DNA of 64,000 nucleotides from Chloroflexota bacterium (GTDB taxonomy: Bacteria; Chloroflexota; Anaerolineae; Anaerolineales; Villigracilaceae), in contig JAPLGT010000035.1 of NCBI GenBank assembly GCA_026390035.1, positions 3,330-67,329 on the forward strand, given 5' to 3'. The notes beneath the pieces are model-generated. The model saw only the letters and a list, made by a program, of their open reading frames with translations, ran no database searches and was not told where the DNA came from. The position numbers were made by a program, and so were the translations under genes. Positions 14,367 to 38,337 of this stretch are shown here, one piece after another; the first letter of the stretch is position 1, and every line of letters starts with the position of its first letter.

Positions 14367-14450
14367 AGCCTAAAAACAACACAAACAACCTTGATATTTA
14401 GCTTCTACCTATGGGGCTGCGTGGCAATAGAATTGCTTCCAAACCCTGAA

Positions 14451-18503: not shown

Positions 18504-18577
18504 TCCTTTTGCCCGGAGAACTGGTCTTGTCCCGGTTCTTAAATAAGGTTCCCAGTGGTATTACGAAAGCCGGAATA

Positions 18578-18613: not shown

Positions 18614-18639
18614 ATCAAATATGATTTGAGAAATGATGT

Positions 18640-19509
18640 ATGCAAATTAAGATTTTCCAAAAAGGCTTTAATTATTCTCAAGACGGTACCGGCAACCGTC
18701 TGGTCTACCATCTGCAAGGGTGTAATTTGCATTGCCCTTGGTGCGCCAATCCTGAAGGGATTGCCATCAAAGGGGCTCTCTGGGTATCCAACGAATTTCT
18801 AATTGACTCAATTTGTCCGTATGGTGCCATCGACTCAAAACAAATTAATCGATTGCTGTGTGATGCTTGCAACACCAGAGAATGCATTACCCGCCACAGA
18901 ACCAGGGGGATCCGGCTTTCTTATCAAGAATACGAAATCGATGCCATTATTGAAGAAGTTAAACGAAGCTCTGCTCTTTTTTATGATGGAGGCGGTGTAA
19001 CTTTAAGCGGTGGAGAACCAACCCTCCAATTTGAACCCGTCAAACTATTATTGAGTGAATTAAAAAATCTGGGTATCCACACAGCCATTGAGACCAATGC
19101 CAGTCACCCCAGGCTTGAAACTCTTTTTCCATTTATTGATTTACTCATCATGGATTTCAAACATTACGACGATGCTCTTTGCGCCAGTGTGACCGGTGTA
19201 AACAATGCGATAGTCAAAGAAAATATCCTAAAAGCAGCTGCCTTGCACAACAGGGTCCTGATACGCGTCCCAGTTATCAAGAGTTTTAATGATTCAGTGA
19301 CCGATATCTGGAATTATGTTGGTTTTTTCAAACAGCATAATATTTCAAATGCAACTTTTGAATTTTTACCTTTCCATGAATACGGTCGGACAAAATGGCA
19401 GCAGTGTGGAATGTCATACATCATGCAAGATGGTTATGTTAATCCAGAAATAATCGCTTTATATGAAAAAATATTCATGGATAGCAATTTCAAGTTGGCC
19501 CATACATAA
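18640..19509 (+). CDS. Glycyl-radical enzyme activating protein (radical SAM, PflA family with ferredoxin-like insert)
   Basis: An N-terminal CNLHCPWC (CX3CX2C) lies after GxGxR-like FNYSQDGTGNRLV. Extra Cys residues are present (CPYGAI...CDACNTREC). It sits immediately upstream of a GRE. Confidence 0.9.
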   Translation: MQIKIFQKGFNYSQDGTGNRLVYHLQGCNLHCPWCANPEGIAIKGALWVSNEFLIDSICPYGAIDSKQINRLLCDACNTRECITRHRTRGIRLSYQEYEIDAIIEEVKRSSALFYDGGGVTLSGGEPTLQFEPVKLLLSELKNLGIHTAIETNASHPRLETLFPFIDLLIMDFKHYDDALCASVTGVNNAIVKENILKAAALHNRVLIRVPVIKSFNDSVTDIWNYVGFFKQHNISNATFEFLPFHEYGRTKWQQCGMSYIMQDGYVNPEIIALYEKIFMDSNFKLAHT

Positions 19510-19520
19510 GGAGATATTGG

Positions 19521-21959: not shown

Positions 21960-22053
21960 GTTTCGCACAATGGATCGGGGTCAGATAACCTGAACCCGGG
22001 TTGCCATAAGCAGTCTTTTTTTTGCGAAGAGATCGCTGAATATCAACAAAACA

Positions 22054-23085
22054 ATGGAAAATGACCTTCTGTATTTGTCTCTGAAAAACAAGATTTGTGA
22101 AAAGATATTCTCCGGAGTCTATAAAGAAGGCGAAAATCTTCCGCCTGAACGCGTCTTATCCGAATATTACAATATGAGCCGCGTCACAGTCAGGAAATCT
22201 CTTGCGCTGCTGGAAAAAGAAGGCATTCTTGAGAGGCTGCAAGGCAGCGGCACCAGAGTGAAATTTCGAGAAACAGGATACAAAGGCACACTGGACATCA
22301 TTGCCCTGCTTGCCCCCGCCCAAAACCCTTTTTTCTCCACGTTTATTGAACATTTCCAGAGAAATGCCGAGAAAAACGATTCTCTGGTACTTTTCAAACA
22401 GAACATCTCACATGAAAGAGTGGAAGACAGTCTTTTTAAACTGCTTCAAAAAAATATCCACAATGTTGTCATCTGGTTGGAAGATCTAAAACTGGAGAGA
22501 GAATCTGTGCGCAAACTTCGCGCACTGGGAATGAATATGGTCCTTTTTGACATCATCGTGCCCACACCGTATGCCGATTGTGTCTTACTTGATAATCGCG
22601 ATGCGGTTACTTGCCTTTACAATTTTTTATACTCCAAGGGCATTCATGATATCGCCTACATCGGCTGGGATAATTTCGAATTATCAAGTATTCGTGAACG
22701 TGAAAATATTTACCTGGAGCTCCGCGGATCCAAGGATTTACTCTTCCATATCCCGTGGACGGAAAAGGCCAACCTGGCATATGTGCTGGAGAGATTTTTT
22801 AACAACTCCATAAAAATTCATCCTTTGCCTGTGGGCATAATCTGCGCAGATGGCGAACTGGGTGTGGCCTTGAAAAAGACCCTGGCGGAACACGGGATAA
22901 ATAATGAAACCATCGTCGCGATCGATGACTTTCCCACTGCAGAGGCTCTAGCGCTGAGCGTATATGCGCAGCCGTTTGATGCTCTGGCACAGCAGGTATA
23001 CCAATGCCTTTTGGAACAAAACCTGCAATCAGATCAATGGAAGGCTTCGGTCAGGGTTGTAAAAGGAAAAATCATAACGCGCTGA
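22054..23085 (+). CDS. AraR-like chimeric regulator (GntR wHTH N-terminus + LacI/PBP-I sugar-binding C-terminus)
   Basis: The N-terminus LPPERVLSEYYNMSRVTVRKSLALLEKEGILERLQGSGTRV is a GntR-type wHTH. The remaining ~270 aa look like a periplasmic-binding-protein-I fold. Confidence 0.8.
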   Translation: MENDLLYLSLKNKICEKIFSGVYKEGENLPPERVLSEYYNMSRVTVRKSLALLEKEGILERLQGSGTRVKFRETGYKGTLDIIALLAPAQNPFFSTFIEHFQRNAEKNDSLVLFKQNISHERVEDSLFKLLQKNIHNVVIWLEDLKLERESVRKLRALGMNMVLFDIIVPTPYADCVLLDNRDAVTCLYNFLYSKGIHDIAYIGWDNFELSSIRERENIYLELRGSKDLLFHIPWTEKANLAYVLERFFNNSIKIHPLPVGIICADGELGVALKKTLAEHGINNETIVAIDDFPTAEALALSVYAQPFDALAQQVYQCLLEQNLQSDQWKASVRVVKGKIITR

Positions 23086-23094
23086 AATGAGGAT

Positions 23095-24474
23095 ATGATC
23101 AAGATGAGAAAGGTGCGCTCGATTGGTTTGGATATCGGCACCACCACGCTTTGCGCAGTGGTCTTGGATGGCGAAAACGGAGAAATGGTGGATACGCTTA
23201 CCATACCGAATAATTCGTCATTGGAAAGCGAACAACCATGGGCTCGATTGCAGGATCCACGGGTGATCGTTGCAAATATTAAACAGATTGTCGCAGAATT
23301 AGAAATGAAACATGCCCCGATTTCATGTATAGGGCTGACCGGCCAGATGCACGGCATTGTCTATCTGGATGATATTGGCAATCCAGTCAGCCCATTCTAC
23401 ACCTGGCAGGATGGCAGGGGAAATCTCGAATACCGGGATGGGCTCAGTTATGCCGAATACCTTTCGCAGGTTTCTGGAACTAAACTCGCCACCGGATTCG
23501 GCGCGGTGACCCATTTTTATAATCTGGTGAATGGCCTGGTTCCGGCTTCTGCAAGGGTTATCAGTACGATCTATGATTATGCTGGGCTGCAGCTTGCCTG
23601 CGTTACCAGACCAGTGCTCCATCCCAGCAGCGCAGCCAGTTTGGGCTTCTTTAACATCGAAACCAATTGCTTTGATCGCAATGCCTTACAGGCTGCGCAC
23701 ATCAACGAAACCTTTTTCCCTGAGACTACCCCGAAAATTGAAATTATCGGGAAAACCGAGTCCAACATTCCAGTGGCTGTCGCCATTGGTGATAATCAGG
23801 CCAGCTTTATAGGGTCGGTCAATCACAGCACAGAATATTTGCTGGTAAATATTGGCACATCAGGACAGATATCCCTTTTTATCAATGATTATATTAAAAA
23901 CTCTCCGATTGAGATCCGGCCATTCTCAAGTGATGGTTTTCTGATGGTAGGCGCTTCGCTTTGTGGGGGCCGAGCCTACGCCCTGCTTGAAAATTTCTTT
24001 CGCTCAGTTGTACAAATGGCAACAGGCGCAACCTGCCCACCTTTATACGAGATCATGAATGAACTAGCCAGTCATTATCCTACACTGGAACACAAACTTG
24101 AGATCTCCACCCAATTTTGCGGCACCCGTGAGAATCCCTGGCAGCAAGCAGCAATTAACAACCTTGGGGTCGATAATTTCAGCCCTGCTCACTTCATTGT
24201 TGGAACACTGGAAGGGATTGCCAGGGAACTCTATGACCTGTATGAAATTATGAGTACCCAGGGTTCCGTCAAACCCACAAAACTGGTCTGCTCGGGTAAT
24301 GCGCTGCGTCTAAACCTACCTTTGCAAAGACTGGTTTCAGACATATTCGGTATGCCGATCAGCATTCCCCGCTACAAGGAAGAAGCCGCCTGCGGCGCGG
24401 CGCTCTTTGCACTTGTCGCGGCTGGACATCAAAAAAGCTTGGCCGCGGCACAAGCACTGCTGCAATACGAATAA
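23095..24474 (+). CDS. FGGY-family carbohydrate kinase (sedoheptulokinase-like)
   Basis: IGLDIGTTTLCAVVLD phosphate-1 motif, plus GLTGQMHGIVYLD, YTWQDGRG, and the C-terminal GNALR...EEAACGAALFA. Confidence 0.85.
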   Translation: MIKMRKVRSIGLDIGTTTLCAVVLDGENGEMVDTLTIPNNSSLESEQPWARLQDPRVIVANIKQIVAELEMKHAPISCIGLTGQMHGIVYLDDIGNPVSPFYTWQDGRGNLEYRDGLSYAEYLSQVSGTKLATGFGAVTHFYNLVNGLVPASARVISTIYDYAGLQLACVTRPVLHPSSAASLGFFNIETNCFDRNALQAAHINETFFPETTPKIEIIGKTESNIPVAVAIGDNQASFIGSVNHSTEYLLVNIGTSGQISLFINDYIKNSPIEIRPFSSDGFLMVGASLCGGRAYALLENFFRSVVQMATGATCPPLYEIMNELASHYPTLEHKLEISTQFCGTRENPWQQAAINNLGVDNFSPAHFIVGTLEGIARELYDLYEIMSTQGSVKPTKLVCSGNALRLNLPLQRLVSDIFGMPISIPRYKEEAACGAALFALVAAGHQKSLAAAQALLQYE

Positions 24475-24779
24475 AGCACAAGTACCGGCCTAACATGAAC
24501 CCGCCAGGAGTTTGCAGATCCTAGCGGCTGCTTGTCGGAAACATAGTTGAATTAAGCACTACGCGCAAAACTGGCGGGTAAGACATTACAGATTGCAAAG
24601 AAAGTGGCTGTATTTCCTGGGTAAAACCCAATTCACACAGGAAATATAGCCATGAGTATTTTAAGCCAAAAAATGCAGGCTGACTTGTTTTCCAAATGTT
24701 AACATGCCCTTCCTCTACTATTAACAGAAATTGGTTACACTAGTATTAATTGAAAAGTTAGCAATGAGAACAATTACCT

Positions 24780-25844
24780 ATGATCAATTATCCGCCTTAC
24801 GAATATAAACTTCCGGTCAGTATTGCAGATTTGCCAGGGCATGTTTTTTCAGTAACCCCGGAGACGCTTGCTGAAAAAGTCGTGGCAGAGTTACAAAATC
24901 AGCCAGCCCGGCCCGGTGTCATGATTATTGAAAATGGAAAATTGGTGGGGGTTGTAACGCGATTGAAGCTTTTTGAACGAGTCGGACATCGTTTTGATAT
25001 AGAGTTGTTTCTACAAAAACCCATTAGTCAATTAAAAGATCTGATTCGTACCAACACTCAGGCTATGCCAGGGTATGCTCGCATCGATGAAGCCATTCAA
25101 TATGCCCTCAGCAGAGCTGCTCCAGATATATTTGATCCTATTGTTGTGCTGCGTGATGATGGCACACTGCAATTACTGGACATAAACATACTATTGTCGG
25201 CTCAGTCACATGCAATGGCCAGCCTGAGCAATATCGGAGGAAATTTGGAGCAAATAGACAGCCTGATTCATTCAACCCATGACGTGAATGAAATCCTTTA
25301 TATCATCCTGCGGCTTTTGTGCCATGTGGTTCCCTATCATCAGTCAGCAATTCTTGCCATTGATGAAATGGGTCTGGGCTTCGTAGCCCATTCTGGATAT
25401 CGCCCGGATCCAAATCGAGCTGATGATGTCATGAAAAGCGGTACATATGCGCTCATTATGAAATATCGCCTGGCCATTTATATACCCAATGCATGTAATG
25501 CGACTGCCTGGAGGGGTATGGACGTTCTGGGCACACCGATTGCCTGGTTGGGCGTGCCGCTCCTGCTGAACCACCAACCGCTTGGTCTGCTTTCAATCAG
25601 TCGCAATGTGGAAAGGGCTTTCGATAGCGATGAACGTAAAACTGCTCTGGCATTCGCCCAACGGATAACCGAATTGCTCAAATGTGGACAACCAGCTGCC
25701 AGTAATTTAAACGAATTACAAAAATCATTAGATGCCAGGTTTCCACGGGCAGGAGAATCAGTACTGGAGCAAATGTATCGAGGGAATAAGTCTTTAGATA
25801 TAGTGATTAAATCTGCTTTGGGGGAATGGCAGAAATATGGGTAA
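24780..25844 (+). CDS. Sensor-like protein with CBS-like N-terminus and GAF-like C-terminus, no output domain
   Basis: 354-aa ORF. The segments PGVMIIENGKLVGVVTRLKLFE and DPIVVLRDDGTLQLLDINILL look like a CBS pair. The later segment (ILYIILRLL...AILAIDE...LGVPLLLNHQPLGLLSISR) looks like GAF. The domain calls are tentative. Confidence 0.5.
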   Translation: MINYPPYEYKLPVSIADLPGHVFSVTPETLAEKVVAELQNQPARPGVMIIENGKLVGVVTRLKLFERVGHRFDIELFLQKPISQLKDLIRTNTQAMPGYARIDEAIQYALSRAAPDIFDPIVVLRDDGTLQLLDINILLSAQSHAMASLSNIGGNLEQIDSLIHSTHDVNEILYIILRLLCHVVPYHQSAILAIDEMGLGFVAHSGYRPDPNRADDVMKSGTYALIMKYRLAIYIPNACNATAWRGMDVLGTPIAWLGVPLLLNHQPLGLLSISRNVERAFDSDERKTALAFAQRITELLKCGQPAASNLNELQKSLDARFPRAGESVLEQMYRGNKSLDIVIKSALGEWQKYG

Positions 25845-25964
25845 TATCATTTTTGTTCTGGTATTAGTGTTTTTAGTAGTAACGATGTTGGCGCTTGTAT
25901 CCATCGTTTTGCTCGTCACGGTGGATGAAGGTGGTAAAAATATATTTCAGAGGAAGATGGATAA

Positions 25965-26750
25965 ATGAGTAAACATATTTTAGTAACCAATGATGATGGT
26001 GTGACCGCCCCCGGATTGCTCGCACTGGCCCAGGCGATGCAAGCAATCCCAGATACAAAAGTAAGCATACTTGCCCCGGATCGCAACTGGTCTGGCAGCG
26101 GGCATGTCAAAACCCTGGATCGTCCGCTACGCATCAAAGAAGTGGTACTTGCCGATGGTTCAACCGCCTTTGCCAGTGATGGCGCGCCCTCTGATTGTGT
26201 GGCGTTGGCGCTGCTCGGTTTCTTCGAAGAGAAGATTGACCTTGTCGTTTCAGGCATCAACCCTATGGCCAACCTTGGGCACGACGTTACCTATTCCGGA
26301 ACCGTCACTGCTGCAATGGAAGCGCTGATTTGGGATATACCCGGAATTGCTTTTTCACTCGGTTCGCTGGAAAACCACCTGGGAACGCTTGATTACACCA
26401 CTGCAGCTGTCATTACCCGACGAGTGGTGGAAACAGCGCTGGCGCATCGTTTTACCCCTGGGATGCTGCTCAATGTAAATATTCCATACCTGCCAGCCGA
26501 CCAGATCAAAGGGTTCCATATTACCCGCCAGGGATTACGAGTTTATCGCGACCGGTTAGATAAACGTGTTGACCCGCGCGGGCGTCCTTACTACTGGATT
26601 GGGGGTGATTCACCCACCGGTACGCCCGAGGAAGGCACGGATGTCGGCGCGCTATCAGCCGGGTATGTTTCCATTACCCCCATCCAGCTCGATTTGACCA
26701 TGTATACATCCATTCCGACCCTGGGGGATTGGGGCTGGGAAAATAAATAA
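25965..26750 (+). CDS. surE: 5'/3'-nucleotidase SurE
   Basis: The canonical N-terminus ILVTNDDGVTAPGL is present, along with SGINPMANLG and YSGTVTAAMEA. Confidence 0.92.
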   Translation: MSKHILVTNDDGVTAPGLLALAQAMQAIPDTKVSILAPDRNWSGSGHVKTLDRPLRIKEVVLADGSTAFASDGAPSDCVALALLGFFEEKIDLVVSGINPMANLGHDVTYSGTVTAAMEALIWDIPGIAFSLGSLENHLGTLDYTTAAVITRRVVETALAHRFTPGMLLNVNIPYLPADQIKGFHITRQGLRVYRDRLDKRVDPRGRPYYWIGGDSPTGTPEEGTDVGALSAGYVSITPIQLDLTMYTSIPTLGDWGWENK

Positions 26751-26805
26751 AACCCTGGTTTCTCTGCCTTAAATTGGCTTACGCTGAGAAGCGGAGAGCT
26801 TGAGC

Positions 26806-27473
26806 TTGCGGAATATCGCCGCGATTGATGTTGGTCCAACGCCATCCGCATGGTTGTCAGCCGTTTGAATGCTGACAACCATGCGGAGACTCTGGGAAAT
26901 TTGCGCCTGAATGTACGCCTGGGTCAGGATGCTTTCACGTCAGGGCTGTTCAGCGAACCCACAATGCAAATGGCGGTGGACGCTTTCCTACGTTTCCGAA
27001 ATGTGGCCGATGTTTTTGAAGTAACCCAGACTCGCGTTGTTGCCACCAGCGCCATGCGTGAAACTGCCAACAGTGATTTGCTAATAGAACGCATTGCCCG
27101 CGAAACAGGCTTTAATATCGAACTCATCAGCGGCGAAGAGGAAGCCCGTCTCATTCATCTTGCGGTTACAAACACTGTGAATCTCAAGGGGAAACGCGTT
27201 GTGTTGATCGATATCGGCGGCGGCAGTGTAGAAGTGACACTTTCAGATAGCGAAAACAGCCTGTCCACAAAGAGTTATGGCTTGGGCACGGTGCGTCTAC
27301 TGAAAAAACTTGAATCCGCAGATGAGAAAGTGGAAATCTGCCTGGGCACCGGCGGTAACATCGAGGGAATGGGCAAGCTTCGCAAGCACCTGTTCAAGCG
27401 TGATCAAGAAGATATGATCAGCTTGGATGACATCGAACGGCCCGTACTTGTCAGTTCATATTTTTTCCGCTGA
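26806..27473 (+). pseudogene. Decayed exopolyphosphatase/GppA (Ppx-GppA family) gene: frameshifted, internally shortened and truncated
   Basis: Frame A reads LRNIAAIDVG, then the frame breaks. Frame B continues SNAIRMVVSRL. The DNA gatgttggtccaac lacks one base relative to the expected gat gtt ggt tcc aac (DVGSN). The remaining ORF keeps VATSAMRE and LIDIGGGSVE, but jumps to LGTGGNIE and stops at 207 aa. Confidence 0.7.
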
Positions 27474-27892
27474 TTTAACGCTCAGCGTAGGTGCTAACAA
27501 TGTCTTTTCGATGAACAATTATCGTGTTAGCGGCGGATGTGGGTTTTCGCTGAGCAATTTAGCCATGGCCAATTGGCATTACTGCTTACGCAGCACAATG
27601 TAAATTCCAAATGCCTGGCGGGTTAGGGTCCCGGCGTGCGGCTTAGTTCAACTTGGATTGATGCGGCGGCACATAGTTGCCTCTTTTTTGACTTTCGTTA
27701 TTTCCGCCGCGTCAATCCTTAATTCGTTAAGTTGGAAACTGGCGATTATTCATTCTGGGTGGATGCACAGATGGCAAAAGCTTCAGCACATCAAATAATG
27801 TTAAAACAGCTCCACATCAACCCGGCCTGTAAGGCATATTTTCTGTATAATAGGCTCGTACTAAACTTTGAATTTTTTGGAGGATAATTCGT

Positions 27893-29035
27893 ATGCCCAA
27901 AAAGGTCTTTGTCAGTGGATGCTTCGATTTACTGCACAGCGGTCATGTGGCTTTTTTTCAGGAAGCCGCCAGGTATGGCGACCTGTACGTTGCGATCGGT
28001 TCGGACCGCACAGTTTTTGAACTCAAGAATCGCTCCACAGTTAACAATGAAAATGAACGCAAGTATATGATCAAAGCCCTGGCCAACGTCAAAGACGTAC
28101 TGATCGCAAAAGGCTCGGGCATGCTGGATTTTGTTGATGAATTGAAAGAAGTCCAACCTGATTTTTTTGTAGTCAACGAAGATGGCAACCTGTTGGAAAA
28201 AAAGAAACTGTGCGATGAATTGGGCATCGAATATGTTGTTCTAAAGCGTGACCCTCACCCAGGCCTGACCCCGCGCTCAACTACTGCGCTGCGCGGAATG
28301 AGCAATATCCCCTACCGCATTGACATCGCGGGAGGCTGGCTGGACCAACCATTTGTCTCCCAATACCATTCCGGACCGGTGCTGACGATTTCAATCCACC
28401 CAACTATTGAATTTAATCAACGCAGCGGCATGGCTTCCAGTACCAGGGCTTCGGCGGTGCAAATGTGGGGTGCAAGGTTGCCTTCGGATAACGTTGAAAA
28501 ACTAGCAAAAATGCTATTTGCATACGACAACCCCCCGGGGACAAAAGAAATCTCAGGCTCCCAGGATTCGATCGGCATCATTTATCCTGGCCTGGCTAAA
28601 GCAGACTATGATGGCAAATACTGGCCAACCCAGATTACAGCAATGCAAGATGAACATATTCTGACATTTATTGAGGAAGCCCTTTACCTGATACCACTCA
28701 GCCCACGACCCTCCGGTTTCCATGTGCTCGAGAATACGAATATCACACCTGAAGGAGCCAAGGCTCTGGCCGACGCAGCTATTTCTTGTTGGGAAGCCAT
28801 CCTTGCCAGAAACGTGATCGAATTTGGTCGCAGCGTGCGCGCCAGCTTCGACGCCCAGGTGGCAATGTTCCCGCACATGTTGACTGACACGATGCTAGAG
28901 TTGATTGATATTTACCATGAACGCGCCCTGGGTTGGAAGGTCTCTGGTGCAGGCGGCGGCGGTTATTTGATCCTGGTCTCCGATAAGCCCATCGAAAATG
29001 CTGTGCGAATTAGCGTAAGACGCCAGAGCGATTAG
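27893..29035 (+). CDS. Bifunctional cytidylyltransferase-fold nucleotidyltransferase / fucokinase-like GHMP sugar-1-kinase
   Basis: The N-terminus VFVSGCFDLLHSGHVAFF carries the HxGH motif of the TagD/RfaE-II family. The C-terminus has RIDIAGGWLDQPF, SGMASST, SGSQDS and WKVSGAGGGGYLILV, which are GHMP/fucokinase-like motifs. TATAAT lies at ~27845 and GGAGGA serves as RBS. Confidence 0.8.
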   Translation: MPKKVFVSGCFDLLHSGHVAFFQEAARYGDLYVAIGSDRTVFELKNRSTVNNENERKYMIKALANVKDVLIAKGSGMLDFVDELKEVQPDFFVVNEDGNLLEKKKLCDELGIEYVVLKRDPHPGLTPRSTTALRGMSNIPYRIDIAGGWLDQPFVSQYHSGPVLTISIHPTIEFNQRSGMASSTRASAVQMWGARLPSDNVEKLAKMLFAYDNPPGTKEISGSQDSIGIIYPGLAKADYDGKYWPTQITAMQDEHILTFIEEALYLIPLSPRPSGFHVLENTNITPEGAKALADAAISCWEAILARNVIEFGRSVRASFDAQVAMFPHMLTDTMLELIDIYHERALGWKVSGAGGGGYLILVSDKPIENAVRISVRRQSD

Positions 29036-29160
29036 AAATTTACCCAGCACTAGCTAAAACCCAGGCCGGCCGCCATTCAAGCACGCTTTCCTACGGAATT
29101 CCCCCGATCATTTTGCGCAGATGAAAACAAGACACATCGGAACCATACACGGCTAATCTC

Positions 29161-29205
29161 AAAATCCATCAACGATAAAATAATATTTCGTCGTTGATGG
29201 ATTTT
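29161..29205. terminator. Bidirectional intrinsic terminator between convergent genes
   Basis: A perfect 15-bp stem, AAAATCCATCAACGA (29161-29175) / TCGTTGATGGATTTT (29191-29205). It has an A-tract on one side and a T-tract on the other. Confidence 0.7.
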
Positions 29206-29222
29206 GGGCGATACCAGAACAC

Positions 29223-31094
29223 TTATTCAAATGTTGTGATTTGAATGATCTTCCGAGATAGGTCAGTATAACTGCCGCATGCACGAATAATTTTCCCAGA
29301 TACTCCCAATATTTCTGGTGGAGCCAAAAGCCAAACATCTTCATTTTTTGCAAAATTGATTGTCGATGTAAATATTGTAGGGGGGACAATTGCGTGGCGC
29401 AGATCATTGATAAAAATGGTGTAATCTCCAGGAAAATTCTTCAAACTCCTTCTCACATCTTTGTCTGGCACAATGGGAAAATCTGTCGTTTGCCTAATTT
29501 CATTTTTCACTATCATAAGATACGAACCAGTTGGGGCATAAAAAGCAACCGGAACAAGTCCTTCTGGACAGGTTATTGCTTGAAAAACTGGTTTTCTATT
29601 ATTAGCCTTTATCAAAACCACGCTCAAAGACATGACAATCATTAGCGAGCCAAAGAGTACCGCGCTGGTACCATTTGTTAATAACATGTTTTTCTGGCTG
29701 GGCAAAAGAATCGGTTTTTTGGCAATAACACCCACGCCAAATGCGGCAAACAAACACGGGATAACAATTGTAACTGCGTAAAGACGCATCCCAGTTGCAT
29801 CACCTGGAGGTACAAATGGAATCGAAAGAAAAATTCCCACAGCGAAAGCCAGCATAAGTGCGCAAACCAAACTAGATCTTTCTAACCAGCACTTTGTTAA
29901 ACCGATAACCATGAGTATTAGAAAGCTAATTTGGAGAATTTGATCAAAAATATCATTACCGAAACGGATATACCCAAAGACCGAATTTAATCCGGGGAAA
30001 ATAAAGTCGCGATAAGATTTTAATATCCCCTTCATAAGTCCGATTGGATGATTGTAAATTTCAGCCAACGCAGCATTATAGGCAGCTGTAGGCAGATCAG
30101 CACTGGATTTCGATTCTTGGTTGGGGTAATCGATAAAGAATTGTTGCCACCCAGCGCCTCCTTTTGCCTGACCATATAGTGTATACGAAAAAATACCAAG
30201 TGGCATTGAATTAGGCCCCGATGAAAATTGACTCACCTTTAAATTTAACTGCCAAGTAGCTAATACAATAATAATTATCAGAATAGCATTTCGGAACATT
30301 CTTTGCCGATCTTCTGAAAACGTAAACAGTCCAAGTAAGATTATTGTAGGGATGATAAATAAGGCGCCTGGACGAACAAACATCGCAAATACTGAGAAGA
30401 ACAATCCTACACAAAAATACCTGAAATCTTTTGCTCGAAATGCAATCACCAAGGTAAGAAACGCTATCTCACCAGCTGCCATTCCCAACTGCTCCGACAT
30501 CGTTGAACCAGCAAACTGCCGATAGTATATTTGGAGTAGAAAAAGAGTAATTATTCCAACCAGCGGTCCGAAAATATTAGAGAGCTCCTTCGCTAACAAA
30601 AAAGCTGCAATTGCATTGATGATGACAAAAATGATTAAAACAATTTGCAAATTTTGCTGGGTAATAGCCAAAAGAACCGTTAGCAAACAACCAAATAAAG
30701 GTCTGTAACCTGAAAACGTTCCAAATAGACCACCATGCAACAATTCCAACGCATCCATATAATAATTTGAAGCATCAGACCAGGGAAGTATTCCTAAAAC
30801 AGTATTGAAATTGCTGACCACATTTCCCCATATTCTCAATAGCGGCAGATAAAAAATGCACATAGTCAGAAACAAGGACAAGAATTTCCATAGCCAGGAT
30901 GTCTTGGAAAAAGAAATATAAATTACCACGCAGGAAAATATTATTAAGAATTCGTCAATTATTTGGATTCCATTTCTTTCTATTTCCGGCAAGCGCGGCA
31001 GAAAAAATAATAAACCAAACATGGCAAATGAAAAAAAGAACCATGAACCTGATCGAACCCTGGTTATTATTTTCGACAAGATTACCTCCACCAA
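29223..31094 (-). CDS. Large polytopic membrane protein, GT-C-fold (ArnT/PMT-like) glycosyltransferase candidate
   Basis: 623-aa ORF, AT-rich by eye. It has more than 10 hydrophobic helices followed by a ~130-aa soluble C-terminal domain. The first-loop motif WSDASNYY...SGYRPLFG resembles the DxxxY/PPL region of GT39/GT83 enzymes. The start is uncertain: TTG 31094, TTG 31079 after GGAGG, or ATG 31022. Confidence 0.5.
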   Translation of the reverse strand: MVEVILSKIITRVRSGSWFFFSFAMFGLLFFLPRLPEIERNGIQIIDEFLIIFSCVVIYISFSKTSWLWKFLSLFLTMCIFYLPLLRIWGNVVSNFNTVLGILPWSDASNYYMDALELLHGGLFGTFSGYRPLFGCLLTVLLAITQQNLQIVLIIFVIINAIAAFLLAKELSNIFGPLVGIITLFLLQIYYRQFAGSTMSEQLGMAAGEIAFLTLVIAFRAKDFRYFCVGLFFSVFAMFVRPGALFIIPTIILLGLFTFSEDRQRMFRNAILIIIIVLATWQLNLKVSQFSSGPNSMPLGIFSYTLYGQAKGGAGWQQFFIDYPNQESKSSADLPTAAYNAALAEIYNHPIGLMKGILKSYRDFIFPGLNSVFGYIRFGNDIFDQILQISFLILMVIGLTKCWLERSSLVCALMLAFAVGIFLSIPFVPPGDATGMRLYAVTIVIPCLFAAFGVGVIAKKPILLPSQKNMLLTNGTSAVLFGSLMIVMSLSVVLIKANNRKPVFQAITCPEGLVPVAFYAPTGSYLMIVKNEIRQTTDFPIVPDKDVRRSLKNFPGDYTIFINDLRHAIVPPTIFTSTINFAKNEDVWLLAPPEILGVSGKIIRACGSYTDLSRKIIQITTFE

Positions 31095-31649
31095 TTCAGC
31101 GCAGCAAGAAACGCAGGTACCATTTTAACCTCTTTGATATAACGCCAACCCACACGAGCCAAAAAATTTATCTATCCTGTTCTATTTCAAACATCACAAA
31201 TTGTTACCCCTGAAATATCCAGAAGAAAAAAATCAATGCTTGTTAATTCAGTGCAAACCGGTCCACAGCACGGTGGGCTAACGGTTGTCCGATTGGCGCG
31301 TACATTATACATCTTCCTATTGGATAAATTCCTTCGTACCCAATTATCCAATTATCGCACAAGTTACAGAGATATACAAAAATTCTCAGTTACGCAAGAT
31401 GTCCCGTACAGGTATCAATTCTATCAGTGATATATGCCCAAATTTTGAATCTTTTATTAAAACAAGCTACTTATCCCTTTCAGTCTGTTTCCCGAGACTG
31501 TCTTATATATTTTCATATTTGGATACCAGCTTTAATTCACATCTAGGAAAACCTAAAAAATGGTATTTCAAATATAAAGAGCCCGACTTTATTGTATCCA
31601 AAACCTTAATATCGCACGGCACCATTCTTACATATTTTGTGGTATCATA

Positions 31650-31679
31650 TTGACAACGTATGGTATCGATACCATACGT
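31650..31679 (+). promoter_or_regulatory. TTGACA -35 box followed by a perfect 24-bp palindrome (LacI-type operator)
   Basis: TTGACA is at 31650-31655. ACGTATGGTATC|GATACCATACGT at 31656-31679 is its own reverse complement. The core ATGGTATCGATACCAT (31660-31675) fits TGnnAnCGnTnnCA. The site is 24 nt upstream of the LacI-family ATG. Confidence 0.65.
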
Positions 31680-31702: not shown

Positions 31703-32737
31703 ATGACAACCATCCATGATGTGGCCAAACGAGCCGGAGTTGCCTCAATCACTGCTTCACGGGTGATCAACAATTCCGGCTATGCCAGCGAAGCTGTGCG
31801 CAAACGCGTGCAGGATGCTGCCAGAGAAATGGGATATGTACCCAACCGCCTGGCCAGCAGCTTGCGCTCACGGCGCACGAATGTGCTGGCGCTGGTACTG
31901 ACCGATATCACCAATCCTTTTTTTACGGTAGCAGCTCGCGGCGTGGAAGATGTTGCCAACCAGGCAGGTTACACTGTAATTTTCTGTAATACAGATGAAG
32001 ACAAAACCAAAGAACAGAAATATGTCGAGATATTAATGCAAAATCGGGTCGATGGGGTCATCCTGGTACCAAGCGATTCTGATTCTGGATCAGTTGAGAC
32101 TTTGCAACAAAACGGCGTTCCCGTGGTGGTCATCGACCGGCACGTACCGAGCAAAACTGTCGACCAGGTACGTTGCGATTCGATCGGCGGCGCCCACGAT
32201 CTGACCCGGCTCTTAACCTCGCTCGGACACCAGCACATCGCACTCTTGAACGGACCGCAAAATGTATCCACCGCAGCTGACCGCCTGACCGGGTTTCAAC
32301 TGGCAATGCAGGAGGCTGGCAACCCGGCCCGGGCAAATCAAGTGATCATCTCTGGATCTTTCAACCGTGCCAGCGGCTATGAGATGGCCCGACAGGTGCT
32401 TTCGATGTCACCTCGCCCAACCGCCCTGCTGGCAGGTAACAACTTCATTGCCTTGGGCGCTTTGCAGGCCCTGGAAGAAGCCCGCGTGCGCGTGCCGGAA
32501 GACATGGCCGTGGTGGCCTTTGACGACCTGCCGGAATCCCTGGTAGTTTCGCCCTTTTTGACAGCCGCTGCCCAGCCCGTCTATGAAATGGCGACCAGGG
32601 CCACTGAAATTTTGATTCGACGCCTGGGAAACAACACTGAAAAAGAGTTTAGCGAAGTCATTTTCCCCACCCGGCTTATATTACGAAAATCGAGCGGCGC
32701 AGCCATCCATCCTGAGACTTCTTCGCTGCCCAGCTGA
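31703..32737 (+). CDS. LacI-family transcriptional regulator
   Basis: The ATG at 31703 opens MTTIHDVAKRAGVASITASRVINNSGYASEAVRKRVQDAAREMGYVPNRLASSLRS, a canonical LacI HTH plus hinge. A PBP-I effector domain follows. Confidence 0.92.
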   Translation: MTTIHDVAKRAGVASITASRVINNSGYASEAVRKRVQDAAREMGYVPNRLASSLRSRRTNVLALVLTDITNPFFTVAARGVEDVANQAGYTVIFCNTDEDKTKEQKYVEILMQNRVDGVILVPSDSDSGSVETLQQNGVPVVVIDRHVPSKTVDQVRCDSIGGAHDLTRLLTSLGHQHIALLNGPQNVSTAADRLTGFQLAMQEAGNPARANQVIISGSFNRASGYEMARQVLSMSPRPTALLAGNNFIALGALQALEEARVRVPEDMAVVAFDDLPESLVVSPFLTAAAQPVYEMATRATEILIRRLGNNTEKEFSEVIFPTRLILRKSSGAAIHPETSSLPS

Positions 32738-32779
32738 CCCGTCACACAACCAGAAACACAAATCAAGGAGACTATAAAA

Positions 32780-33823
32780 ATGACAAACATGATTGCAGCA
32801 ACCGATCCCAACCTCAAAAAAGACGACCTGATCGTAATAACCGGTGCAGGCGGCTTTATTGGAGGTTCGCTAGTGCGCTACTTCCAGGAACAGGGCTTTA
32901 CCAATTTGCGCGCCGTGGATAAAAAACCACTGCCCACATGGTACCAGCGTGTACCAGGTGTGGAATGCCTGAGCATGGACTTGAGCCAGGAAGAAAACTG
33001 CATCCGCGCCGTGGAGGGCGCAAAAGAAGTTTACAACCTGGCAGCGGATATGGGCGGCATGGGCTTTATTGAGCGCTTTCGCGTCGAATGCATGCGCAGT
33101 ATTCTGATCAACACCCACATGCTCGAATCGGCCTACCGGGCCGGGGTGGAACGCTATTTCTTCTCGTCATCCGCCTGTGCCTATAATATCTCGCTGCAAC
33201 AAGACCCCAACGTGAGCGCGCTCAAAGAAAGCGATGCCTACCCGGCCAATGCCGAGCGTGGTTACGGTTGGGAAAAATTAATGTCTGAAATGTTCTGCCA
33301 GGAATATACATCCGAGCGCGGCATGAAAACCTTCATTGCGCGCTTCCACAACGTCTACGGGCCCAACGGCACCTGGGACGGCGGACGTGAAAAAGCCCCT
33401 GCAGCTATCAGCCGCAAAGTTATTACCGCCAAACAAAGCGGCAAACATGAAATCATGATCTGGGGCGACGGCAGCCAGACCCGCAGTTATATGTTTATAG
33501 AAGACTGCGTACGCGGAATCGACATGATTACGCACTGCGACGCACTGACAGCCACCCCCATCAACCTGGGCTCGAGTGAACTAGTATCGGTTAACGAATT
33601 GGTCAGTATCGCAGAGCAGATCGCCGGCGTAAAACTGGAACGCAAGTATGATCTCACCGCGCCACGCGGGGTAGCCGGGCGCAACAGCGACAACACCTTC
33701 ATCCAAAAAATGCTAAACTGGGAACCATCCACATCTTTCCGCGCCGGACTGGCAAAGACCTACGCCTGGATTGAACAGCAATATATCGACCGACAGGCCG
33801 GCAAGCGGGTCGTCACCGAATAA
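32780..33823 (+). CDS. GDP-mannose 3,5-epimerase (GME)-like extended SDR
   Basis: AAGGAG serves as RBS. Blocks ITGAGGFIG, NLAADMGGMGFI, SSACAY, ESDAYPA, YGWEK, FHNVYGPNGTWDGGREKAPAA, WGDGSQTRS and GVAGRNSDN are nearly co-linear with the plant GME blocks I recall (NLAADMGGMGFI, GTWKGGREKAPAA, GVRGRNSDN). Confidence 0.85.
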   Translation: MTNMIAATDPNLKKDDLIVITGAGGFIGGSLVRYFQEQGFTNLRAVDKKPLPTWYQRVPGVECLSMDLSQEENCIRAVEGAKEVYNLAADMGGMGFIERFRVECMRSILINTHMLESAYRAGVERYFFSSSACAYNISLQQDPNVSALKESDAYPANAERGYGWEKLMSEMFCQEYTSERGMKTFIARFHNVYGPNGTWDGGREKAPAAISRKVITAKQSGKHEIMIWGDGSQTRSYMFIEDCVRGIDMITHCDALTATPINLGSSELVSVNELVSIAEQIAGVKLERKYDLTAPRGVAGRNSDNTFIQKMLNWEPSTSFRAGLAKTYAWIEQQYIDRQAGKRVVTE

Positions 33824-34691
33824 ATCCGCCTGGCAGATCTCTGCCAGGCTACAAGACCCATGCCACCTGGATGTTTTTCACCCAGGTGGCGCAAGATGGA
33901 ACGCCAAAATTGTCGATATCACCCAGATCATCAACAAAATTCCGTACCGGCTCGCGCTTTCAGGCGGTTGGATTGATCAACCATTCGTATCTCGAAACAA
34001 CCCTAGCCCACCCGGCTCAATGGTCGTGGTAGGCGTGCAGCCCGATTTTCGCTTCATGGATCGCTGTGGGATGGGCACCAGCACACGCCAGGTAGCTGCC
34101 CGGCTTTGGAATGGAACACTGCCGCAACGCGACCCCGCCGAAATGGTCCAGGAGTTATATGCTGCCGAAAATGAAGGCCTGGCCGAGCCATCCGGCTCTC
34201 AAGACATGGCCGGATTGATTTATCCCGGTGTCAACCGCCTGGATTACGACCACAATTATTCTGGCGGAATTTTTCCTGTTCGGATCGAATCGAATACAGA
34301 CTCACAGACCGCCGCCTGGTTGGAAAACGTCATGCACATCTTACCTGTTGCGCCACGCCCGGCAGGATACAACCCCTTTGGCAATGAAAACCTGGCCCCA
34401 GAATGGGTTCAACGCCTGGGCCAGAGCGGGAAGGCTTGCTACACAGCCATTGAACAACGTGACAGCAGCGCCTTGGGCGAAGCCATGAATGAATGCATGC
34501 GCTGCTGGGAAGCCATCCTACCGCGAACCGTGCGCCATCCTTTACTGACCCTTGACCTGATGGAACTGCTGGCGTTTTATCAACACCGTTACGCCGGAGC
34601 CATGTATTCAGGCTGTGGTGGTGGATATCTTTACATCGTTTCAGAACAACCCGTACCCGGATCCTTCCAGATCAGGGTACGTTTGGAGTAA
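33771..34691 (+). CDS. Stand-alone fucokinase-like GHMP kinase-domain protein (start uncertain)
   Basis: RLALSGGWIDQPF, CGMGTST, SGSQDM and YSGCGGGYLYIV parallel the kinase half of the 27893 gene. The only canonical in-frame start is TTG 33771, which overlaps the GME gene by 53 nt. Confidence 0.7.
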   Translation: MNSNISTDRPASGSSPNKSAWQISARLQDPCHLDVFHPGGARWNAKIVDITQIINKIPYRLALSGGWIDQPFVSRNNPSPPGSMVVVGVQPDFRFMDRCGMGTSTRQVAARLWNGTLPQRDPAEMVQELYAAENEGLAEPSGSQDMAGLIYPGVNRLDYDHNYSGGIFPVRIESNTDSQTAAWLENVMHILPVAPRPAGYNPFGNENLAPEWVQRLGQSGKACYTAIEQRDSSALGEAMNECMRCWEAILPRTVRHPLLTLDLMELLAFYQHRYAGAMYSGCGGGYLYIVSEQPVPGSFQIRVRLE

Positions 34692-34692
34692 T

Positions 34693-35781
34693 ATGCCCGA
34701 CACTGGAAGCCCGTTTTCATCCGAAAGTCAGTTCCGCGCCAGGTATCGAGACAAATTATCCGCCATGCTGCGAGCCAACACTACCGCCCACGATTTTGGG
34801 CTGAGCACGTTTGTCCTGGTGTGCGCCAATGCCTATTTTGACCGCGATATTCTGAACGAGCTGGACAATGACCTGCGACGGGCCTTTATCAACATCCGCG
34901 AGAAATACTTTCGGCTTTTTGCAGAAGGACAGATCCTGGATGAGCGCCATGCCGAAGATCTACTGGTGTTTTTGAAAATTGCGCTGGTTGGGCTGGAACA
35001 ACTGCGAGTAACAGAACACCGGCCCCTGGGTGAATGGACGCTCCAGTTTAACCACATTCGCTCATTCAGACCACAGAGAACCGCAGCCAGGTCGGTGCCA
35101 TCCATCGATATCCCTTTTAACGAAAATTCCTTTCACTACGACGCGGCACTGTGCGAGCGGGAAAGCTTCTGGTCTGGCAGCCTGGCAGGCAAAAACGTTT
35201 CCTTGCTGTATAACAAATACCCTTTCGCTCGCCTACACGCACTTCTAATTCCGGAACCAGAAAGAAAACAACGGCAATTCCTGGATCGCGAAAACCATGA
35301 CTGGGCCTGGAATGCGGCTCAATCTCTGGCGCAAGACCTGCCAGGATTTGGCCTGGGTTATAACTCGTTGGGAACCTTCGCTTCAGTGAATCACCTGCAC
35401 TTTCAAACCTTTATCGAACCAAACGGCATGCCTGTCATGCAAAACAGCTGGAAACACAATGGTGGCAGCCAGGAATACCCGCTGCCATGCATTGTATTTG
35501 ACTCAGTAGAAGCTTCGTGGAAATGGATGGAAAGGATCTACACCCAAAACAGCACTTCCTTTAATTTGCTATACACACCCGGGAAGATCTTTTGCTTCGA
35601 GCGTAAACGCCAGGGCACCTACCGGCATGCGCGCTGGACAAGCGGTTTTGCATGGTATGAACTGGCCGGGAACATCATCACCTTCAGCCGTGAAGACTAC
35701 AGCGCCCTGACACCCGACCGGATCGAAAAAGAGTTTAAAAAACTAAAAATCCAGCAGAAACAGAAGAACTCGGATGCCTAA
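34693..35781 (+). CDS. GDP-L-galactose / GDP-hexose phosphorylase-like HIT protein (VTC2/GDPGP1 family, HxHxQ)
   Basis: The ATG at 34693 comes 2 nt after the upstream stop, with GGAG upstream. LGYNSLGTFASVNHLHFQTF compares with Arabidopsis VTC2 LGYNSLGAFATINHLHFQAYY (from memory). Co-linear blocks also occur at HALLIPE, FNLLYTPGKIF and WYELAGNIITFSREDY. Confidence 0.8.
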   Translation: MPDTGSPFSSESQFRARYRDKLSAMLRANTTAHDFGLSTFVLVCANAYFDRDILNELDNDLRRAFINIREKYFRLFAEGQILDERHAEDLLVFLKIALVGLEQLRVTEHRPLGEWTLQFNHIRSFRPQRTAARSVPSIDIPFNENSFHYDAALCERESFWSGSLAGKNVSLLYNKYPFARLHALLIPEPERKQRQFLDRENHDWAWNAAQSLAQDLPGFGLGYNSLGTFASVNHLHFQTFIEPNGMPVMQNSWKHNGGSQEYPLPCIVFDSVEASWKWMERIYTQNSTSFNLLYTPGKIFCFERKRQGTYRHARWTSGFAWYELAGNIITFSREDYSALTPDRIEKEFKKLKIQQKQKNSDA

Positions 35782-36871
35782 AAAAGCCTTCGTCAGCGGT
35801 TGTTTTGATTTGCTCCACAGTGGTCATGTGGCCTTCTTTGAAGAAGCCGCCCGCTATGGCGAGCTATATGTCGCGATTGGTTCTGATCGCAACGTCTTTG
35901 AACTCAAACGACGCCCCACCATCAACAGCGAAGCCGAACGCCTGTATATGATCAAATCTTTGGCGTATGTAAAGGATGTATTTGTAGCCAAAGGTTCAGG
36001 GGTTTTGGATTTTGTGCAGGAACTGGCTGTGATCAAGCCTGACTATTTTGTGGTCAACGAGGACGGAAGCACGCCAGCAAAGAAAAATCTGTGCGAGGAA
36101 TTGGGAATCGAGTACGTTATCTTAAAACGCGAACCCCACAGCGGTCTGGCTGCACGCTCAACCACCGCCCTGAGAGGCGCGAGCCTGATCCCCGATTACA
36201 TCGGGCTGGCAGGCGGCTGTCTGGACCTGCCGGAAATTTCAAGGCTTGCTCCCGGCCCAGCCATCACCATCTCGATCCAGCCACTCCCGGAGCATTCATC
36301 CAGCACACGCAGGGCCGCGATCGAATTATGGGATGCGCGCCTGCCGGCGGACAAGCCCGAAAAGCTGGCCAAAGTTCTTTTTGGATATACAAACCTGCCT
36401 GGCACTGCTGAAATCCGCGGCTCAAAAGCCGCGCTCGGCATCTGCTTACCAGGCGTATCCAGGACAGATTACAGCGGACAATACTGGCCGGAACGTTTAA
36501 CCAATCAGCAAGATGAAGCTATCCTGAAATTCATCGAAGACTCGCTTATCGTGATTCCGTTTGATTTACAAACGACCTCATCGTACCCACACAAAATGAC
36601 TGCCCGTGCAACAGAAGCCCACTGCCGAGCCGCTGAAGCCTGCTGGCAGGCCATCCTAAAGCAGGATAAGCTGGCTTTTGGGCAGAGCCTGACGGCAAGT
36701 TTTGAATCCCAAACCGCCATGCTCCCACCAGACAAAACCACCCAGGAACTGATCGCCACCTATCGGGAACAGGTCCTGGGATGGAATATCTGCGACCTGG
36801 GACTGTTACTTGTGACTGACAAACCGTTGGAAAACGCCACCCGCATCAGCCTACGGCATGCGAACGATTAA
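35774..36871 (+). CDS. Cytidylyltransferase-fold nucleotidyltransferase fused to a degenerate (pseudo-)GHMP kinase domain
   Basis: The start overlaps the upstream stop (ATGCCTAA). The N-terminus [18 protein letters not shown] is intact. The kinase motifs are eroded relative to the 27893 paralog: [30 protein letters not shown]. Confidence 0.75.
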   Translation: [365 protein letters not shown]

Positions 36872-37434: not shown

Positions 37435-38337
37435 TTAGATTCCCTGATAACAAACGAAGGTAAACCCATTTATACTCTGCAACCTGGGGTGTCGCCTGTG
37501 AACCCGTCTGCCGGGCCCGGGAAGTTGGTTAAAATATTTGGTCTCTCCATCAGCCGAACCAAAGAAATAGTCCGGCTGTCCTGCCTGAGCGCGGGCATGT
37601 AGTTGGTCTGCTAGCTGCCAGCCATTCAGGGCCTTGCCCTGATAAGTCCACTTGAATGGTTTGGCCATTGTCAGGTTGTAATATTCGATGAAAGCCAGAA
37701 CTTTGCGTTTTAGATCATCCACTGATGTGAAATTGCCTCGTTTCAGAGCTTTTCGAACCAGGATACTGAACCAAATATCGATTTGGTTCATCCAAGAAGC
37801 ATGCTTGGGCGTGTAATGAAAAACGATGCGATGTGTTGGATCACTCAAAAAGGCGGCGCGCGAAGCTTTCGATTTCAAAATACCGGATTTACCTTTCTCG
37901 CCTAAATCAGAAGTAATGTCTGACTCTTCCGCAACATATCGAACCAGCGATTCTGACATGTGCGTGTTGAGATTATCGCAAACAAAGCCATATTTCACGA
38001 CCAATGGGTCAGAAACAACGCGCTCTTTGATATGCGCCAGGAAATCTTTTTCGTTGCGAGTCTTCTTTGCTGTGCAGGCAACCAGTTTTCCAAGCACAAT
38101 ATCAAAGTTGCAGGTAAAAGACAAAGTACCATGCCGTTTGTATTCGAACTCAATACGCCTTACCTTGCCAGGCTGCATGGGTAGATCCGGATGTTTACGC
38201 TCTAATGCTTGAACACCTGTCATTTCATCGATACTTTCCAGCTGTTCTCCCTGTTTGGCCAGTTCAGGAGCTTGTTTGCAAGCCTCGTTAATAGCAGCAA
38301 CCTTGTCGTCAAAACCTGCTTCACACGCTGGTGTCAA
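37435..38337 (-). CDS. IS630-family transposase, DDE catalytic part (orfB)
   Basis: [24 protein letters not shown] and [16 protein letters not shown] form the DD(E/D) triad region. The frame is +1 relative to orfA. Confidence 0.8.

Follow-up and report, generated by a model that had tools for sequence, protein, structure and literature searches.

A palindromic operator predicted to place a sugar ABC importer and a GDP-mannose 3,5-epimerase operon under one LacI-family repressor in a Chloroflexota bacterium

The 64-kb stretch of Chloroflexota DNA analysed here (64,000 nucleotides of contig JAPLGT010000035.1, hereafter the window) carries a 16-bp palindrome at two places, one before a LacI-family repressor gene (31703-32737) that heads an operon with a GDP-mannose 3,5-epimerase (GME) gene, the other at the promoter of a sugar ATP-binding cassette (ABC) importer 17 kb upstream. 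Judging from sequence comparison, we consider it very probable that this palindrome is the operator of the adjacent repressor, acting both at its own operon and at the importer, and that the glycyl radical enzyme (GRE) cassette lying between the two units is separate and controlled by a GntR/LacI chimera. Binding itself, repression rather than activation, release by an effector and the identity of that effector are what we infer from this arrangement.

The palindrome pair and its repressor

A first-pass annotation of the window had reported the two palindromes, and their sequences and coordinates are as it gave them. The site before the repressor gene is a perfect 24-bp palindrome, ACGTATGGTATCGATACCATACGT at 31656-31679, whose 16-bp core ATGGTATCGATACCAT (31660-31675) recurs as ATGGTATCGTTACCAT at 14699-14714 with one central mismatch, both being strandless elements of the general form ATGGTAT-CG-ATACCAT. 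The centre of the first lies 35.5 bp upstream of the repressor ATG, and that of the second 77.5 bp upstream of the ATG of the ABC ATPase. A search for the 16-mer with up to three mismatches finds only these two places in 64 kb, and a position matrix built solely from sites upstream of repressor orthologues in other genomes, with the window excluded, gives the same two palindromes its top scores, 28.3 and 26.5 bits, ahead of a next match at 12.9 bits. With sites of at least 18 bits expected 0.013 times per simulated 64-kb sequence, the pair lies far beyond chance. The third-best match, GTGGCACCGATACCAA at 10446-10461 (12.4-12.9 bits), falls within the coding region of a membrane-protein open reading frame (ORF) at 9827-10630 and is probably a chance occurrence. 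With 41 copies of the hexamer TGGTAT in the window, a half-site standing alone carries no weight. The additional TGGTAT/ATACCA hexamers that had been listed as half-sites do exist at 31640, 18556, 18590 and 18605, and none of them stands as a half-site of this operator: the one at 18556 was rejected because it is not conserved in a related locus (L061) and because the hexamer is so frequent, and the remaining three belong to the promoter and operator elements described below.

Operators of LacI-family transcription factors are even palindromes of 16-22 nt with a central CG, and 72% of these factors are autoregulated (Ravcheev et al. 2014, PMC4052901). The window sites, 16-bp even palindromes with a central CG placed 35 and 77 bp before start codons, resemble those of local LacI/GalR repressors such as RbsR and GalR/GalS, and we predict, as the first-pass annotation did, that they are LacI-type operators. 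The repressor gene, on the plus strand, encodes 344 amino acids with a helix-turn-helix (HTH) domain (PF00356, 63 bits against a cutoff of 27, residues 3-48) and Peripla_BP_1, Peripla_BP_3 and Peripla_BP_4 matches over residues 60-331, and the protein aligns along its full length with the structures of RbsR, CcpA and PurR, CcpA being the second-best PDB match (E ~1e-53). Headpiece residues 2-58 align with residues 4-60 of the lac repressor, and these alignment coordinates equate L54 with the hinge residue Leu56 of the latter. In the LacI family, operator binding involves insertion of the hinge-helix leucine at the central CpG. The combination of HTH, hinge helix and type-I periplasmic binding protein core is again that of the local repressors, as are a small regulon of transporter and metabolic genes and autoregulation, which the site before the repressor gene suggests here as well. 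The protein is unlike the lac repressor in carrying S/P-I/V at the Y17-Q18 positions of the recognition helix, its TGGTAT half-site is unlike those of RbsR, GalR, PurR and the catabolite-responsive element (cre), and two operators 17 kb apart through insertions are unlike the usual local regulon. NCBIfam contained no equivalog scoring above cutoff for the protein, and we know of no characterised orthologue.

Both palindromes coincide with promoter regions. The importer has a sigma-70-type promoter on the plus strand that agrees with 11 of 12 consensus positions (TTGACA at 14672-14677, a 17-nt spacer and TACAAT at 14695-14700), and the palindrome covers the last two nucleotides of its -10 box together with the transcription start region, which bears out the overlap claimed earlier. 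Because the operator overlaps both elements, a bound dimer would occlude them, and this placement implies repression. Neither the -35 nor the -10 box varies in the orthologous promoters of L004 and L002, and an alignment of the three promoters has its invariant blocks at the promoter hexamers and the operator, without conservation in the flanks. The same geometry is found before the more distant repressor orthologues of six loci (L005, L006, L008, L010, L012 and L057), where the operator begins at the last two nucleotides of the -10 box, 17-18 nt after TTGACA. The sequence at 14449-14494, between a radical-SAM gene and the importer promoter, is a perfect inverted repeat of 19 nt around an 8-nt loop, has A/T runs on its flanks and looks like a bidirectional terminator that would insulate this promoter.

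At the repressor gene, the promoter is probably an extended -10 element, TGGTATCAT (TG-G-TATCAT, 31640-31648, plus strand), which would place the operator at about +4 to +20. When the four closest repressor promoters (window, L001, L004 and L002) are aligned, TTTTGTGrTATsAT and the operator, the latter with 15 consecutive invariant columns, emerge as conserved islands in otherwise diverged sequence, separated by 5-11 bp. This extended -10 box contains TGGTAT and so explains the apparent half-site at 31640; an auxiliary role for the hexamer was rejected, given that its distance to the operator varies (17 or 21 bp, hexamer to hexamer) and that the form TGnTAnnAT is what is kept. The TTGACA at 31650, previously taken for a promoter box, does not qualify as a -35 element, since no usable -10 follows at 16-18 nt and the hexamer lies inside a window-specific insertion of 4-5 bp that leaves it missing from the three closest orthologous promoters.

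The pairing of palindrome and repressor is carried by comparison across genomes. A scan with the window repressor, taking one genome per species, gave 57 loci, ten of which are distinct orthologue loci at 44-87% identity (L001, L002/3, L004, L005, L006, L007, L008/9, L010, L012 and L057). These come from metagenome-assembled genomes (MAGs) of Anaerolineae and other Chloroflexota, with Anaerolineae MAGs closest to the window. The palindrome stands 20-60 bp upstream of the repressor start in all ten, in one to three copies, and not a single site of at least 18 bits was found in the 44 loci (~776 kb) with more distant LacI homologues, Anaerolineae loci included. All motif-bearing loci, and only these, keep the recognition helix GV(A/S)(S/P)(I/V)T(A/V)SRV(I/V)N, which differs in L011, L013, L016 and L054, where the motif is missing. 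In three of the ten loci the palindrome is also found at the orthologous ABC promoter, as an identical 16-mer in L004, as a close variant at the same place in L002, and within the divergent ABC/LacI intergenic region in L057. The link between the sugar transporter and the LacI-GME/VTC2-like operon that the first-pass annotation had drawn from the operator is therefore kept in other genomes.

Some orthologue loci carry more elaborate arrangements. Tandem operators occur in L005 (8889-8918), L006 (9959-9990) and L012 (9937-9968), with two or three abutting or overlapping copies spaced 14-16 bp centre to centre, and L002 has an auxiliary operator at 4263-4278, ~310 bp upstream of the one at its ABC promoter. 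In L008 (993-3191), and likewise in L009, the repressor orthologue makes up the N-terminal portion of a 732-aa ORF, which continues for ~390 aa as an uncharacterised C-terminal extension; two operators, at 657 and 943, lie upstream of this ORF in L008.

The glycyl radical enzyme cassette and competing explanations

The four genes of the GRE cassette, assigned by domain searches, encode a GRE activase (18640-19509), the GRE (19521-21959), the GntR/LacI chimera (22054-23085; PF00392 at 61.7 bits over residues 6-69 and Peripla_BP_3 at 32.6 bits over residues 191-343) and an FGGY kinase (23095-24474). They had been described as one operon with the ABC genes, a description that does not survive closer inspection of the intervening sequence. 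An intrinsic terminator on the plus strand (18472-18495; a 10-bp stem, eight of its pairs GC, and then seven T in a row) ends the ABC operon, and the hairpin recurs in L004 behind the orthologue of the binding-protein gene. Upstream of the activase, a separate promoter at 18578-18606 agrees with 11 of 12 consensus positions (TTGACA beginning at 18578, a 17-nt spacer and GATAAT ending at 18606), and the operator at this promoter is of a different type. Across its -10 box lies a strandless, near-perfect 33-bp palindrome, GATAATTGGTAT-N9-ATACCAATTATC at 18584-18616, whose arms contain the hexamers at 18590 and 18605. We assign this N9 palindrome, as a predicted element, to the chimera, which would govern the GRE cassette through it.

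This assignment draws on cassettes in other genomes. A metagenome scan with the chimera gave only three GntR-HTH matches, and homologues were taken from the protein database, where they are common, and from contigs examined at 41-75% identity. The cassette of activase, GRE, chimera and FGGY kinase recurs in Clostridia, in one Spirochaetes MAG and in Chloroflexota-like contigs, in unrelated neighbourhoods without a LacI orthologue or GME (loci L061-L067 and L069, of which L061 and L062 are one place, amounting to five or six different sequences). Directly upstream of the activase, TTGGTAT-N9-ATACCA(A/T) is present in seven of seven cassette loci; besides the window, the conserved element was located in L061 (6628-6650), L063 (6661-6683), L064 (6663-6685), L065 (6620-6642), L067 (6659-6681) and L069 (4731-4753). 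The cassette promoters have TTGAC(A/G/T) followed by (A)ATTGGTAT-N9-ATACCA(A/T), with the arms (A)ATTGGTAT and ATACCAAT(T) 9 bp apart and the -10 box usually within the spacer. A solitary chimera paralogue (L068) has a variant, GTGGTAC-N9-ATACCAC, upstream of its own gene (7928-7950). The N9 element is absent from every LacI-orthologue locus that is without the cassette, and a search of eight chimera-homologue loci at the 15-bit threshold for LacI sites yielded no comparable 16-bp motif, the best match scoring 15.0 bits far from the cassette. This double dissociation of motifs across loci connects the CG palindrome with the LacI protein and the N9 palindrome with the chimera, and the GRE and FGGY genes appear to form a self-contained cassette outside the LacI regulon.

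The first-pass annotation had envisaged one regulon for sugar uptake, GRE, FGGY kinase and GME/VTC2-like genes. Uptake and the GME/VTC2-like genes do belong together, but the GRE and the FGGY kinase have a cassette, promoter and operator of their own. That a single regulator might nevertheless control all of these genes via TGGTAT sites, through read-through or dual recognition, strikes us as improbable. TGGTAT/ATACCA is common to both operators, the cassette has a LacI-controlled unit on either side in the window, and probably in L001 as well, and in L063 and L065 it likewise follows sugar ABC genes, which makes it plausible that uptake and the GRE are functionally linked. However, the arms are 2 bp apart in the LacI operator and 9 bp apart in the N9 operator, which makes it unlikely that one protein recognises both, and LacI-family binding requires hinge helices at the central CG (family knowledge; PMC4052901). 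The GRE promoter holds no LacI-matrix match of at least 12 bits, and the strong terminator and the near-consensus promoter divide the ABC from the GRE genes. Moreover, the N9 operator accompanies the cassette in Clostridia and Spirochaetota contigs that have neither a LacI orthologue nor the 16-bp motif, and L002 and L004 retain both LacI operators while lacking the cassette.

As for the protein that binds the 16-bp palindrome, the LacI protein and the chimera had both been put forward, and co-occurrence of the motif with their orthologues favours the former; we attach very little probability to the chimera. Its case draws on AraR of Bacillus subtilis, which has the same architecture of a GntR winged HTH and a LacI/GalR-type effector domain and uses a 16-bp palindrome with a central CG, ATTTGTACGTACAAAT (PMC1950556), and the loose GntR signature GT-N(0-15)-AC describes the window site as well (PMC1950556). 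The chimera further resembles AraR in belonging to a sugar-related operon that it probably represses and in having a palindromic operator that overlaps the promoter. Against this, in the eight homologue loci the N9 palindrome, at the cassette promoter or upstream of the chimera's own gene, takes the place of a 16-bp motif, nine motif-bearing LacI loci have no chimera homologue within ~10 kb, and a structure search returned generic GntR winged-HTH matches only, nothing close to AraR. The arms TTGGTAT and ATACCAA, 9 bp apart (GT-N13-AC) with the -10 hexamer inside the spacer, are unlike the AraR box, and the genes that this clade would regulate (GRE, activase and FGGY kinase) are unlike those of AraR. 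Because the operator differs and no close similarity to AraR was found, we view the chimera clade as sharing the AraR architecture yet not as AraR orthologues.

There is similarly little likelihood that the palindrome is the target of a CcpA-like global regulator at cre-type sites or of a LacI paralogue encoded elsewhere. The window repressor is itself of the LacI family and matches CcpA structures, its site fits the broad LacI/GalR pattern TGnnAnCGnTnnCA, as do cre sites, and our scan covers 64 kb of the genome. The motif nevertheless follows one narrow, local orthologous group and its recognition helix and is missing from the 44 other LacI-family loci. It also departs from the cre consensus TGWAANCGNTNWCA (compared by inspection) at three defined positions and occurs only twice in 64 kb rich in sugar genes, and, unlike in the CcpA system, nothing points to a global role or to an HPr-Ser-P corepressor. 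We can dismiss almost entirely the idea that the palindromes are chance sequence (expectation ~0.01) or DNA or RNA hairpins, such as a leader attenuator, without protein binding: the repressor leader does fold as a 10-bp hairpin (-12.9 kcal/mol, z = -3.1), but no U-run follows it, half of the ABC site lies upstream of the expected start and would stay untranscribed, the sequence is conserved even in asymmetric variants that would break the stem, and an Rfam scan matched no RNA family at or near any palindrome site.

Several observations weigh against assigning the CG palindrome to the LacI protein and the cassette to the chimera. The L007 site has GC in place of CG at its centre and reaches only 15.2 bits. 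The promoter assignment at the repressor gene is an argument from consensus and conservation. The analysis of neighbourhoods extended ~10 kb around each orthologue, and these genomes may encode a chimera elsewhere or a LacI paralogue that shares the motif. The motif count, and with it the size of the regulon, refers to 64 kb of the source genome. Finally, the TGGTAT shared by the two operators is a coincidence, and this is the sole explanation that we offer for it.

Under the assignment that we prefer, a repressor dimer would, when no sugar effector is present, occupy its own promoter region as well as the importer promoter 17 kb upstream. At the importer, the dimer would lie over the end of the -10 hexamer and the start site and exclude RNA polymerase; at its own gene, it would sit just downstream of the extended -10 element. 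Effector binding would free the repressor and induce uptake and metabolism together, while the chimera would control the GRE cassette via the different operator TTGGTAT-N9-ATACCAA. The regulation proposed for the LacI protein is textbook, an autoregulated local repressor with a CG-centred palindrome, and would not surprise a specialist. Less ordinary are the LacI-regulated genes themselves and the second regulator-operator pair, the chimera with its N9 operator, which appears from its recurrence in sequenced contigs to be a previously unannotated pair that spans three phyla and serves an orphan GRE.

The closest solved relative of this GRE is the B12-independent glycerol dehydratase (9e-63), with PflD and YbiW at ~1e-35 to 1e-42; PflD and YbiW are sugar-phosphate C-O lyases (PMC13450708). 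A literature search returned nothing relevant on a GRE associated with an FGGY kinase. In L065/L066 (1-6415) the cassette directly follows a FucU/RbsD-like gene, a gene for a 768-aa fusion of LacI and solute-binding protein (SBP), and sugar ABC transporter genes; as a copy of the window arrangement this locus was rejected, the HTH of the fusion being different and the 16-bp motif missing. The cassette is followed by genes for an MPI-cupin protein and a GH130 enzyme in L069 and by DUF4432 in L064/L067. Neighbours of this kind hint at a sugar derivative as the substrate of the GRE. Since the GRE and the FGGY kinase lie in a separate, horizontally mobile cassette, the GME genes should not serve as a guide to what the two enzymes do.

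The importer and the origin of the 17-kb distance

The importer comprises, all on the plus strand, an ABC ATPase (14784-16298) and a permease (16367-17359), both taken from the ORFs, and a lipoprotein-type binding protein whose probable start at 17467 is preceded by an AGGAG ribosome-binding site and which ends at 18453. Among NCBIfam models, the best matches of the binding protein are to rhamnose- and allose-binding proteins, rhamnose first, both below cutoff.

Gene order in the relatives provides a simple account of how the two operators came to be separated. In L002/L003 and L004 the genes for the ABC ATPase, the permease, the binding protein, a nucleotidyltransferase/GHMP fusion, the LacI repressor, GME and the GHMP-like protein follow one another, and in the longer L004 contig the HIT-like gene and a second fusion gene come next. 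Nucleotide alignment (blastn) of the window to L004 identifies window positions 18501-27832 (9.3 kb), with the GRE cassette, GAF and SurE genes and a Ppx fragment, as inserted sequence, with the ABC terminator on one side and the fusion gene on the other. A second insertion relative to L004, at 29045-31632, holds a minus-strand gene for a 623-aa membrane protein, and a third block missing from the otherwise collinear L004, at ~10847-14667, contains a two-component system and the radical-SAM gene. The chimera and FGGY genes occupy the corresponding position in L001, which lacks 24476-27816 and so has only the cassette part of the first block. Because the ABC and LacI units adjoin in L002 and L004, which keep both operators and have no GRE cassette, and are separated by insertions in the window, the two operators would once have stood a few kilobases apart in one locus, and the 17-kb spacing can be read as an artefact of rearrangement in which the cassette and other genes were inserted between adjacent units. 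The operator shows the importer and the operon of GME, HIT-type phosphorylase and fucokinase-like genes to be one functional unit in several Anaerolineae.

The regulated genes, the likely effector and a tentative pathway

Four structural genes follow the repressor gene on the plus strand. The first encodes GME (32780-33823), with PDB matches 8sg0 and 2c59 at E ~1e-76 to 1e-78. The second, a GHMP/fucokinase-like protein of 306 aa, is recognised from the ORF list and from gene order in relatives (ORF 33771-34691, true start uncertain). The third encodes a probable HIT-superfamily protein resembling NDP-sugar phosphorylases (34693-35781), and the fourth a fusion of cytidylyltransferase-like and GHMP-like parts (35774-36871) with a CTP_transf_like domain. 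From 32780 to 36871 neighbouring genes either overlap or stand only a short distance apart, and no convincing plus-strand terminator was found within that interval. The gene order is the same in L004. The repressor gene and the four structural genes (31703-36871) are presumably co-transcribed as a five-gene operon.

The first-pass annotation had called the HIT-like protein VTC2-like, which probably holds at the level of the fold, the level to which our check extended: the protein carries the HLHFQ motif and appears to have a HIT-superfamily, Ap4A-phosphorylase-like fold. Locally, Pfam gave only a weak HIT match (E 0.1), and the family precomputed for the protein is PF26217; sequence searches of Pfam and PDB returned nothing significant for this protein or for the 306-aa GHMP-like protein. 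The HLHFQ motif is invariant in 20 homologues. An AF2 model (pLDDT 78.5) has the yeast Ap4A phosphorylase Apa2 as its best fold match (E 1.7e-8, TM 0.46-0.56), and this modelled structure suggests a HIT-superfamily fold of the GalT/Apa branch, Ap4A-phosphorylase-like, a match that does not extend to substrate specificity.

A paralogous nucleotidyltransferase/GHMP fusion gene outside the repressor operon (27893-29035) encodes a protein 56% identical to the fusion at 35774 and has a TGTATAAT element of its own at 27844-27851; a LacI-type site before this gene was sought with the matrix scan, which gave none. The C-terminal half of its product resembles the kinase part of a bifunctional fucokinase/fucose-1-P guanylyltransferase (3e-12, below cutoff).

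The effector may be a sugar of the L-fucose/L-galactose type or a phosphorylated or GDP derivative of one, although this is a guess. In two loci whose repressor orthologues are 44-51% identical, L-fucose isomerase genes come after the regulator gene in place of GME, with the same operator (L057 11156-12961 and L010 7778-9583), and L057 also has a divergent operon of ABC and FGGY kinase genes. The L-fucose isomerase neighbours, the fucokinase-like half of the 27893 protein and the rhamnose-binding match of the importer point to an effector of this type, none of them proving it.

The regulated genes invite comparison with the plant Smirnoff-Wheeler pathway (GME and VTC2) and with the Leloir pathway (GalK, GalT and GalE). 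A genuine GME homologue, a phosphorylase-like protein, probably of the GalT/Apa branch, with HxHxQ, and GHMP-kinase-like proteins are all present in the window, and the enzyme logic of a kinase, nucleotidyl transfer and an epimerase is shared, as judged from the genes alone. The genes are unlike those of the plant pathway in being repressor-controlled and co-regulated with an importer, which argues for salvage or catabolism rather than ascorbate biosynthesis, as does the L-fucose isomerase beside distant regulator orthologues. The set is also unlike classical catabolic operons, in that the repressor would govern GDP-mannose 3,5-epimerase, a HIT-type phosphorylase and fucokinase-like proteins. 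A literature search found no bacterial counterpart of the GME/GDP-L-galactose phosphorylase pathway.

We can offer only tentatively a scheme in which these genes form an inducible regulon that metabolises an imported L-galactose- or L-fucose-like sugar via nucleotide sugars, as a bacterial Leloir-like route resembling the plant L-galactose pathway run in reverse. In this scheme the ABC transporter would import the L-sugar, the fucokinase-like GHMP enzyme would phosphorylate it at C1, and the cytidylyltransferase-like domain would convert the product to a GDP-sugar. GME would then epimerise the GDP-sugar to GDP-mannose, which the HIT-type, VTC2-like enzyme would phosphorolyse to hexose-1-phosphate. 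The repressor, its two operators and the candidate L-sugar inducers provide a handle on this uncharacterised GDP-sugar pathway.

Three further features lie outside the units discussed. Directly after the repressor operon, the minus strand carries a 300-aa ORF of transposase-like appearance (37435-38337), and farther downstream, on the same strand, a 2895-aa ORF extends over 40295-48982. Near the start of the window, a c-di-GMP-I riboswitch aptamer (RF01051) was matched on the minus strand at 160-235, with 36.9 bits against a gathering score of 35.

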